64,000 nt of DNA from NCBI GenBank assembly GCA_963756875.1, contig CAVWPA010000001.1, positions 480,001 through 544,000 of the forward strand. The letters are read 5' to 3'. Position numbers: made by a program. Position 1 is the first letter of the stretch; every line of letters starts with the position of its first letter. Source of the stretch: an uncultured Verrucomicrobiae bacterium (GTDB lineage: Bacteria; Verrucomicrobiota; Verrucomicrobiia; Chthoniobacterales; UBA10450). Below are positions 35,401-38,400 of the stretch, in pieces.

Positions 35401-38400
35401 CAAAACATTCAACATATCGCGAACCGCCGCCCCGCTAGGCGAGGTGACGATCCCGATTCTTCTCGGAAATTTCGGCAGCGGACGTTTTCGATCGATTGCA
35501 AACAAGCCCTCGGCATCGAGTTTGCGTTTGAGTGCTTCGAATTTCGCCTGCAAAACGCCGAGACCGCGTGGCTGGAGGATTTGCACGCTCAGCTGGTATT
35601 GTCCCCGTGCTTCGAAAACCGAGACATTGCCATAAACCTGCACCTGAGTTCCATCCACCAGCGGCTGCCGGAAAAGCGGTATGGTGTTGCGAAAGATGAC
35701 GCAGTTGATCTGGGCGCGTTGGTCCTTGAGCGTGAAATATTGGTGGCCGCTCGGATGCAGTTTGTAGTTTGAAATTTCGCCCTGCACCCAGACCGCACCG
35801 AACTTGGTTTCGAGCGTGCCGCGAATTTGTCGAGTCAACTCCGCGACGGTGAACACCTTGGAGGTTTGGGGGAAGAGGTCGCCGGAGAGTTGCATGATTC
35901 TTCTTGCCCGCGAATAACGCCAATATACGCGAATTAAGAAACGTCAGAAGTTTGAACGGAAGACGACAAAGGGAACAAGAACCTTGATTGTGTTCGTTTT
36001 CTTCTGTGGATTTTAAATTCGCGTCTATTCGCGTGATTCGCGGGTTGATTACAACAATTCAGCCTGCGCGCCGGCAGGTGGTTTGAGGCCGAGCTTTTTG
36101 TACACGTTCACGGTGGCGACGCGTCCTTGCGGCGTGCGTTTAATGTAGCCTTCCATGATCAAGTAAGGCTCGTTTACTTCTTCGAGCGTCCCTGCTTCTT
36201 CGCCGATGGCCACCGCGAGCGAATTCAGGCCGACCGGGCCGCCGTTGAATTTATGGATTAACGTTTCGATGATGCGTTTGTCCCACTGATCGAATCCGTC
36301 GCGATCGATCTCCAGCATGGCGAGGGCGCGATCGGCCAGCTCTGCGGTAATTTTGCCTTCCGCTTTCACCTGCACGTAATCGCGAACCCAGCGCAACAGA
36401 TTGTTCGCCGTCCGCGGCGTGCCACGGGTTCGCGTGGCGATCTCAACCGCGCCTGCCTGATCGATCTCGACACCGAGAAGGCGGGCGCTGCGCAGGATGA
36501 TCTTTTGCATTTCCTCCGCGTTGTAATAATCGAGGCGCGCGGTCATGCCGAAGCGCGAACGAAGCGGCGCGCTCACCATTCCGGCGCGCGTCGTTGCCCC
36601 GACCAAAGTGAATTTCGGCAATTGCAAACGAAGACTGCGTGCCTGCGGGCCCTGGTCGATGATAATATCGAGCCGGTAATCTTCCATGGCAGGATAGAGA
36701 TATTCCTCGATTGTCGGTTGCAGCCGATGGATCTCGTCGATGAAAAGAACGTCGCCCTTTTCGAGACTGGTGAGCAATCCGGCGAGTTCGCCGGCTTTTT
36801 CGATGACCGGGCCGCTGGTATTTTTGATGTTCACGCCCATCGCGTTGGCGATGATGTAAGCGAGAGTCGTTTTTCCCAGGCCGGGCGGGCCGCTTAACAA
36901 AATATGTTCGAGCACGTCGCCGCGCCGTTTGGCCGCTTCCACCATCAACTCGATCCGCTCGCGCACTTTCACCTGGCCGGTGAACTCGCTGAACGCCGGC
37001 GGCCGCAGCGAGATTTCGAATGCAGCATCTGGTTCGGGCGGTTTCATGGCGGTCGGCGCAGATTTCATAACATTAGCGAGAAGCTTGTGCACGGCATGAT
37101 TTTAACGCGCAAAATGCGTGGGAATACGCTGGAGAAAAATCCGGGGAGCGCACGCGCCCCCGCGTGCCCGTTTCGGCGCCCTCGCCGAAACGCGCCTTTG
37201 ATAGTGCTTACTCGACGAACTTGCGTGCCCCGAAAAGTCCGCGATCGCGAGGGCGCGATCGCCAGCACGCGAGGCGCGTGCGCTCCCCGAAGCCTGTGTC
37301 CTCTCCTTCGTTATTCCAAGTTCTTCGTGAGCACGAGCTCCGTGCCGCGGGGTTTCAAGATATAATCCACTTTGTCGAATGCGTTTCGGATCAGATTCAA
37401 ACCAAGGCCGCCGGGCCTGAGCTCGGTGTGCGGGCGGCCCTTCATCGCGTGCATCGGCGTTTTCCTGCCGTAATCGCGCAATCGCACCCGGACCGATCCG
37501 CGCAGCCCTTCCATGGACAAGGTAATCACCGCGTCGTCACGCAGCTCGTAGGCGTAACGAATGATATTGGTGCAGGCTTCATCCACGCCGAGCACCATGA
37601 GGAGGCGCTCTTTTTCAGAAAAGGGATAGTCGTCGAGAAATTTTCTCACGTATTTGCGCATCAAAGCGAGATTCGCGGTGTGACTGCTGAACTCGAGCCT
37701 CCTTTTTTTCATTCAGGAAAGGGAATGCTGAGCCCGGTCCGGTGCTCATTCAAGGGCGCGAGACGGAAAAGATTTCGGATCGAGCAGACATGTCCCCGCC
37801 TTGAAAAGCGATTTGGCGGCGGCGGAATTGCCGCATGCCGGTCAGAAAGCGGTATGTCATTGATCACCATTCGCAAAACCGATGGACAGTAGCCGAAACC
37901 GGTTGTTCAGTTTTAGCATGGGAAAAATAGTAGAACGCATCTCACAAATAGAGAACGGGTGCGTTGCCGGAGATTTGGTGCTGCGGCAAGGCGCGAGGAG
38001 GGAGAATATCCCTTTGACCGAGGAGCAACGCGGCCGCAGCGGCAAAGATCGGCAACCCTTCGGGCCAGACTCTGGCCCCGACGCGTCGGGAGCGACGTTG
38101 CTCCTCAGTCACAGAGCGCTTCGGCTATGCTCCTTTGTCGCGCCTTGCCAGCAGCCCGCCAGAGTCTGGCGCACCCATTTCCTATTTGTGAGATGGGTTC
38201 TAGTAGCGCTGCTGCTTTTTGCAACGCCGGTGCTGGCACAGGACAATGCCACAGCCTATGAAGCTTTGCGCACGGTCGGAGCACACTTCAATCGCGATTC
38301 TCTGAATCACGTAATCTCTGTGACCGGCGTGGACGGTAGTCCTCGGCCGGCGAGATGGAAAATCCTGTTCGAAGACCCGCATGCGCGCGGCGGCGTGCAC

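Follow-up and report, generated by a model that had tools for sequence, protein, structure and literature searches.

RuvB is a near-universal and heavily studied motor. In the RuvAB complex, 12 RuvB subunits are described, with their heads gripping the DNA that exits the junction (PMC9477746). How RuvB reaches forks and gains direction in cells is described as unsettled (PMC12448304). The bacterial sliding clamp (the beta-clamp, or DnaN) has many better-described partners: MutS, PolB (Pol II), and DinB (Pol IV) are among those tabulated in a recent review (Table 1 of PMC11139829). According to section 11 of this review, the last two hydrophobic residues of the motif dock in subsite I of the clamp, and LF alone can bind. 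Elsewhere, it describes clamp motifs as an interchanging pair of pentamers and hexamers.

Our literature search, mostly of papers available without subscription, found neither a clamp motif in RuvB nor a link between RuvB and the clamp. The term "Ruv" is absent from the available text of the review (PMC11139829), "RuvB" and any RuvB motif are absent from that of a paper on RecB and the clamp (PMC13254535), and the available part of a paper on RecF and the clamp names no RuvB motif (PMC10287930). RuvB is plain and the motif described below is of a known kind; it is their pairing that appears to be undescribed.

A putative clamp-binding motif at the end of RuvB

We analyzed a window of 64,000 nucleotides (positions 480,001 to 544,000 of contig CAVWPA010000001.1) from an uncultured Verrucomicrobiae bacterium. 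As the initial annotation had it, the window encodes a RuvB whose tail ends in QAELL; this is a minus-strand open reading frame whose stop side is at 36049 (Table 1). Judging by its sequence, the protein is an ordinary RuvB. It passes the cut-offs of two NCBIfam equivalog profiles (481 vs. 282 bits and 448 vs. 299 bits; Table 1), and R304, G308, and R309, from the DNA-binding arginine hairpin of the head, are invariant in an alignment of 126 RuvB proteins. Starting at the ATG at 37047 gives 332 amino acids, which is the commonest length among close homologues (labelled Chthoniobacterales in the source databases); an alternative start upstream, the GTG at 37092, would give 347 amino acids. RuvA and RuvC are both encoded at other sites in the genome and score over the cut-off, with ruvA on a different contig.

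Table 1. Features of ruvB and its product, in window coordinates
Feature	Coordinates	Strand	Basis
ruvB, Holliday-junction branch-migration motor, 332 aa	36049..37047	-	NF000868 and TIGR00635; Pfam RuvB_N, AAA_lid_4, RuvB_C
AAA+ P-loop domain, residues 14-172	36532..37008	-	PF05496, E 8e-75
AAA lid domain, residues 175-248	36304..36525	-	PF17864
Winged-helix DNA-binding head, residues 251-319	36091..36297	-	PF05491; helix 313-319 is the last in the AlphaFold2 model
Gly/Pro/Ala linker, 8 residues, 320-327	36067..36090	-	Coil in the AlphaFold2 model
Terminal QAELL, residues 328-332, putative beta-clamp-binding motif	36052..36066	-	Sequence; conservation and controls

Downstream of ruvB is xseA (34603-35895 in the window), and upstream is an anti-sigma-like gene (37311-37712). 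Among 30 loci from the order, only the five from the same family have this arrangement, and we rejected a conserved DNA element or operon as what lies behind the tail.

In the AlphaFold2 model of the RuvB monomer, there is no secondary structure beyond residue 319, and the pLDDT falls from a mean of 80 for residues 321-330 to 50 for residues 331-332. Because of this, the tail is probably a coil with an unplaced tip. The tail had been called flexible; full disorder would go beyond what a monomer model supports.

Few proteins in this genome end as RuvB does. Among 2,346 greedily chosen open reading frames of at least 100 amino acids, five have Q-x-x-[LM]-[LFW] at the C-terminus: MutS (QLDLL), PolB (QAELL), DinB (QIPLF), a DUF72 protein (QLDLL), and RuvB (QAELL). 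For the narrower pattern ending in [FL], the composition of these proteins predicts 1.2 cases and the same five are observed. The initial annotation had counted 8 of 2,620 proteins, and had given MutS, DinB, and PolB the same motif as RuvB. With our different gene set we did not reproduce the exact count, but the rarity was borne out; similarly, the four proteins share a class of motif, but the exact word QAELL is common to RuvB and PolB only. QAELL satisfies Q-phi-x-[LM]-[FL] if alanine is counted as phi, and a revised clamp consensus admits it as such (PMC13254535).

Several other proteins in the genome have similar ends. A radical SAM protein of the PA0069 family (C2:105307-106773) ends in QLDLFAGG, which is a perfect consensus clamp motif. 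Weaker near-terminal matches, to Q-x-x-L-(x)-L, are found in RNase HII (C1:106550-107194) and in an RNase D-like exonuclease (C3:1644686-1645795). The DUF72 protein is encoded at C3:1442662-1443627, and we take DUF72 to be a predicted clamp-binding family.

Distribution of the RuvB tail

We scored the part of RuvB after the last helix as a "strict" tail if it contained Q-x-x-[LM]-[FL] or Q-x-x-[LM]-x-[FL]. The "any" category adds looser forms with glutamine, as well as LF or LL without glutamine. Among 120 close homologues, 111 had a strict tail, 3 had a looser one, 1 had none, and 5 were not scorable. Across 61 genomes from the order (including this one), 36 had a strict tail and 54 had any tail, so the tail is indeed kept across the order, as had been proposed. 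The remaining seven genomes include, as also noted earlier, both of the 0.9-Mb genomes, along with four species of one small-genome genus.

For the rest of the phylum, we picked 49 RuvB proteins from 120 matches so as to spread them across families, with their tails unseen. In other orders of the class, 19/25 were strict and 23/25 had any tail; in other classes, the corresponding numbers were 16/24 and 22/24.

Beyond the phylum, we searched GTDB genomes using a degenerate pattern based on the conserved head of RuvB, which gives a convenience sample and not a random one. One incomplete row was dropped, which left 119 proteins. Among the matches listed, 45/119 were strict and 90/119 had any tail. 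If we shuffled these tails, we obtained a mean of 2.6 strict (maximum 8) and a mean of 16.0 with any tail (maximum 34). Over the sets from the order, the rest of the phylum, and other bacteria, shuffling gave means of 1.2-2.6 strict tails and maxima of 5-8. Strict tails occur in 14 of the 20 named phyla among the matches listed, including Pseudomonadota (10/25 of the matches listed), Bacteroidota (8/17), Actinomycetota (6/19), Acidobacteriota (6/10), and Bacillota (4/17). Tails without glutamine account for 34/119 of the matches listed. A set of 150 representatives of 50% clusters was noisy, as 63 lacked the head anchor and 10 had long extensions; the other 77 comprised 24 with strict tails, 19 with looser tails, and 34 with none.

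We also read 30 of 31 genomes in each of two samples of a class. Around a gammaproteobacterial genome, 3/30 were strict and 18/30 had any tail (12/30 lacked the glutamine). Around Sutcliffiella, in the Bacilli, 0/30 were strict and 1/30 had any tail. The RuvB of E. coli has no terminal motif. The tail is not specific to the order and is spread over many phyla, and it is absent from the lineages of both of the main model organisms, E. coli and B. subtilis. Separately, a collection of phages contained 34 records with RuvB-like matches.

The tail is conserved as a peptide

The RuvB tail is real and far above chance. In 30 genomes that were chosen with their RuvB tails known, 24 RuvB proteins had a strict end, as compared to none of the 30 RecA proteins. 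None of 81 RuvA proteins (from the same loci as RuvB) had a strict end either, but RuvA is a weak control because it ends in a folded domain.

Both glutamine codons and all six leucine codons occur in the tail. Also, the DNA past the stop codon and the neighboring genes differ among ruvB loci. Therefore, selection is on the peptide. The motif is kept while the linker diverges: across 103 five-residue motifs from relatives, the linker varies in sequence and is 4-16 residues long (mostly 7-11). Unsupervised motif discovery with 103 unfiltered tails gave Q(0.55)-x-x-L(0.92)-F(0.70).

In total, 289 RuvB tails hold 119 strict motifs, of which 103 are pentamers and 16 are hexamers (such as QAELPL or QGELGL). 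Both forms have a hydrophobic pair, at position 4 and at position 5 or 6. We built an unrooted tree of the RuvB core without the tail (196 rows, leaving out partial loci, half of the motif-bearing loci from the order, and two thirds of the Bacilli). The presence or absence of the tail requires 29 changes on this tree, as compared to a mean of 44.6 if shuffled. The hexamer is found in 11 of 88 tree rows and requires 11 changes, so it arose repeatedly.

Loss of the tail is often specific to RuvB, as two tail-less genomes retain a canonical motif in MutS. In the small-genome genus (four species of 1.7-1.9 Mb), the RuvB tail is lost and the MutS motif is degenerate too; in the one genome checked, the pocket motifs of DnaN look intact. 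In the two 0.9-Mb genomes, which have no RuvB tail, we found no match to MutS. As explanations for the loss, we rejected a changed clamp, as the pocket motifs are intact in 5/5 tail-less genomes; nor is loss of RuvC a general explanation, as all four tail-less Verrucomicrobiota that were tested retain a match to RuvC (three of them over the cut-off).

The clamp

The genome encodes a single DnaN. R151, T171, R175, L176, V246, N319, V357, M359, and P360 are invariant in an alignment of 28 rows, with arginine replacing His175 of E. coli. We infer the correspondence of these residues to the list for the E. coli pocket, and this genome's clamp is predicted to have an intact peptide pocket.

When we co-predicted DnaN (with the 28-row alignment) and residues 303-332 of RuvB (with the 126-row alignment), the ipSAE values of 0.11 and 0.15 were below the mark of 0.32; no controls were folded, and we give this prediction weight in neither direction. 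A search of the PDB with the last 30 residues of RuvB matched RuvB chains only, and no RuvB peptide chain of at least 20 residues was found there in another complex.

Departures from the canonical clamp motif

Position 2 of the RuvB motif is rarely canonical. It is L, I, V, or A in only 14 of the 119 strict motifs, so an aliphatic residue is not a family-wide feature; instead, G, P, Q, S, or T is usual. For MutS in overlapping genomes, 43 of 45 motifs have L, M, or I there. We also compared whether position 5 is F or L in the RuvB and the MutS motifs of 52 genome pairs; the counts were 14, 12, 2, and 5, which include kin that are not independent, and there is no clear co-variation.

Studies of the clamp point in both directions. 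Position 2 is called tolerant, and yet changing it from Leu to Ala in a model peptide weakened binding about 40-fold (PMC11139829). MutL from E. coli binds the clamp with proline at this position (section 11 of PMC11139829), and EndoMS/NucS from actinobacteria binds it via tails that lack glutamine (PMC6159515). In contrast, a motif-like peptide from RecB, QALRF, showed no binding by NMR (PMC13254535). The RuvB tails suggest that searches with QL[SD]LF miss a large class of motifs with Gly or Pro at position 2.

Similar tails are also found in PurF (amidophosphoribosyltransferase). The learned matrix ranks PurF first of the 2,346 open reading frames in this genome. Its top 14 include MutS, DinB, the DUF72 protein, and the radical SAM protein. 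It also picks up other non-DNA proteins, and this RuvB and PolB are outside the top 25. PurF from this genome ends in QPTLFADLK (C3:1590187-1590633). Similar (Q/H)-P-x-L-F ends are present in 8 of the 12 Verrucomicrobiota copies that were extracted (of 16 loci), and Q-L-S-[LF]-L ends are present in all 3 copies extracted from Alphaproteobacteria (of 4); none of 4 copies from other phyla had a motif-like tail. PurF thus shows that tails of this kind occur beyond DNA enzymes. Either PurF is another clamp client or the motif is not specific to the clamp. It is possible that the tail of PurF links purine synthesis to the clamp, or that it is a second use of the motif.

Given these departures, the tail of RuvB might dock another partner (such as RuvC or another repair protein, a pocket of the SSB-tip type, or a protease or adaptor) and merely resemble a clamp motif. 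This would account for the systematic Gly or Pro at position 2, unlike MutS, for the many tails without glutamine, and for the tails of PurF. If the partner were RuvC, it would also fit with the sampled Bacilli, which lack the tail, and with the controls from B. subtilis and L. lactis, which gave no match to RuvC. But E. coli has RuvC and lacks the tail, as do the tail-less Verrucomicrobiota discussed above. Also, the fixed Q-x-x-L spacing and the repeated switches to six residues fit clamp motifs, and the occurrence of canonical QLSLL as well as QPxLF in PurF suggests that these are one class of motif. We consider another partner to be unlikely.

We give somewhat less credence to a role inside RuvB, in which the hydrophobic tip would pack on its own or a neighboring subunit and affect assembly or activity. 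The linker is short and most of the tail is predicted with some confidence in the monomer. However, the last two residues are not, the linker can be anywhere from 4 to 16 residues long, and tail-less RuvB proteins, such as that of E. coli, make working hexamers. The available parts of two cryo-EM papers (PMC10272136 and PMC9477746) contain no relevant passage about the tail. Finally, it is very improbable, and largely refuted, that the match reflects chance, functionless shared ancestry, or conservation of an underlying DNA element: although 1.0-1.3% of the open reading frames in this genome have a strict match near their end and the tail was lost many times, the 45 strict tails among the 119 matches listed far exceed the maximum of 8 from shuffling, the motif persists as the linker diverges, and neither the codons nor the surrounding DNA are conserved.

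A model for clamp tethering

The initial annotation described RuvB as a likely client of the sliding clamp. The consensus, the conservation at the protein level, the switching between five and six residues, the company of known clients, and the intact pocket all argue indirectly for this reading; the rarity of canonical residues at position 2, the similar tails of PurF, and the repeated loss of the tail while the pocket motifs of the clamp persist weigh against it. On balance, the tail is probably a low-affinity tether to the clamp, through which RuvB reaches DNA that has just been replicated. The last two residues of the tail, Leu-Leu or Leu-Phe, would anchor in subsite I, glutamine (where present) would add affinity, and a small residue, Gly, or Pro at position 2 would keep each tail weak. 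In solution, the up to 12 RuvB subunits per RuvAB complex would compete poorly with polymerases; where clamps remain on newly made duplex DNA, the weak tails would hold on. As a result, RuvB would accumulate at post-replication gaps and at forks that have stalled or reversed, and RuvA would then assemble the rings there. The tails of RuvB probably point away from RuvA. Because the RuvB proteins of E. coli and of most sampled Bacilli lack the tail, the tether would be accessory.

More speculatively, clamp tethering could, in most bacterial phyla, pick which opposite pair of arms at a reversed fork gets the rings of RuvB, because the two daughter arms, which carry the clamps, lie opposite each other. 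This choice would direct migration towards fork restoration, which is the direction that RuvAB is reported to prefer in vitro (PMC12448304), and would bias RuvC in its choice of strands to cut. E. coli and B. subtilis, in which most work on RuvAB was done, would be exceptions. We regard this extension as doubtful.

If RuvB is tethered to the clamp, then replication is linked to recombination repair through an unrecognized tether. The lack of such a tether in both main model organisms would account for its having gone unnoticed. Branch migration would join RecB and RecF on the list of clamp clients, in parallel to PCNA and Hjc in archaea.

Comparison with known systems

The RuvB that we studied has the same domain set and length as known RuvB proteins (TIGR00635 and NF000868; 9DX3, 7PBL, 8EFV, and 1IN4), and distant RuvB proteins are in the range of 50-60% identity to it. 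It differs from the RuvB of E. coli, which ends in GITPPEMP, by carrying the terminal motif.

Among proteins described as binding the clamp, Pol II, Pol IV, Pol III alpha, and MutS likewise have a coil that ends in Q-x-x-[LM]-[FL] or in the six-residue form Q-x-x-[LM]-x-[FL] (PMC11139829). As in these C-terminal clients, the RuvB motif is often acidic at position 3 (56/119). Unlike them, RuvB usually has G, P, Q, S, or T at position 2, and the carrier is a hexameric ring motor. The non-canonical tails that are common in RuvB do have proven counterparts: EndoMS/NucS (PMC6159515) binds the clamp with xxxLF, without glutamine, and E. coli MutL does so with Pro at position 2. Those two are mismatch-repair nucleases, while RuvB is a branch-migration motor.

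Two recombination proteins from E. coli, RecB (PMC13254535) and RecF (PMC10287930), were recently tied to the beta-clamp. The motif of RecB is internal and canonical and RecF is described as having no clear motif, while the motif of RuvB is terminal. A parallel in function is the archaeal Hjc, whose C-terminal PIP motif couples the processing of Holliday junctions to a sliding clamp (PMC10956419). Hjc is a resolvase that binds PCNA, while RuvB is a motor that would bind the bacterial clamp.
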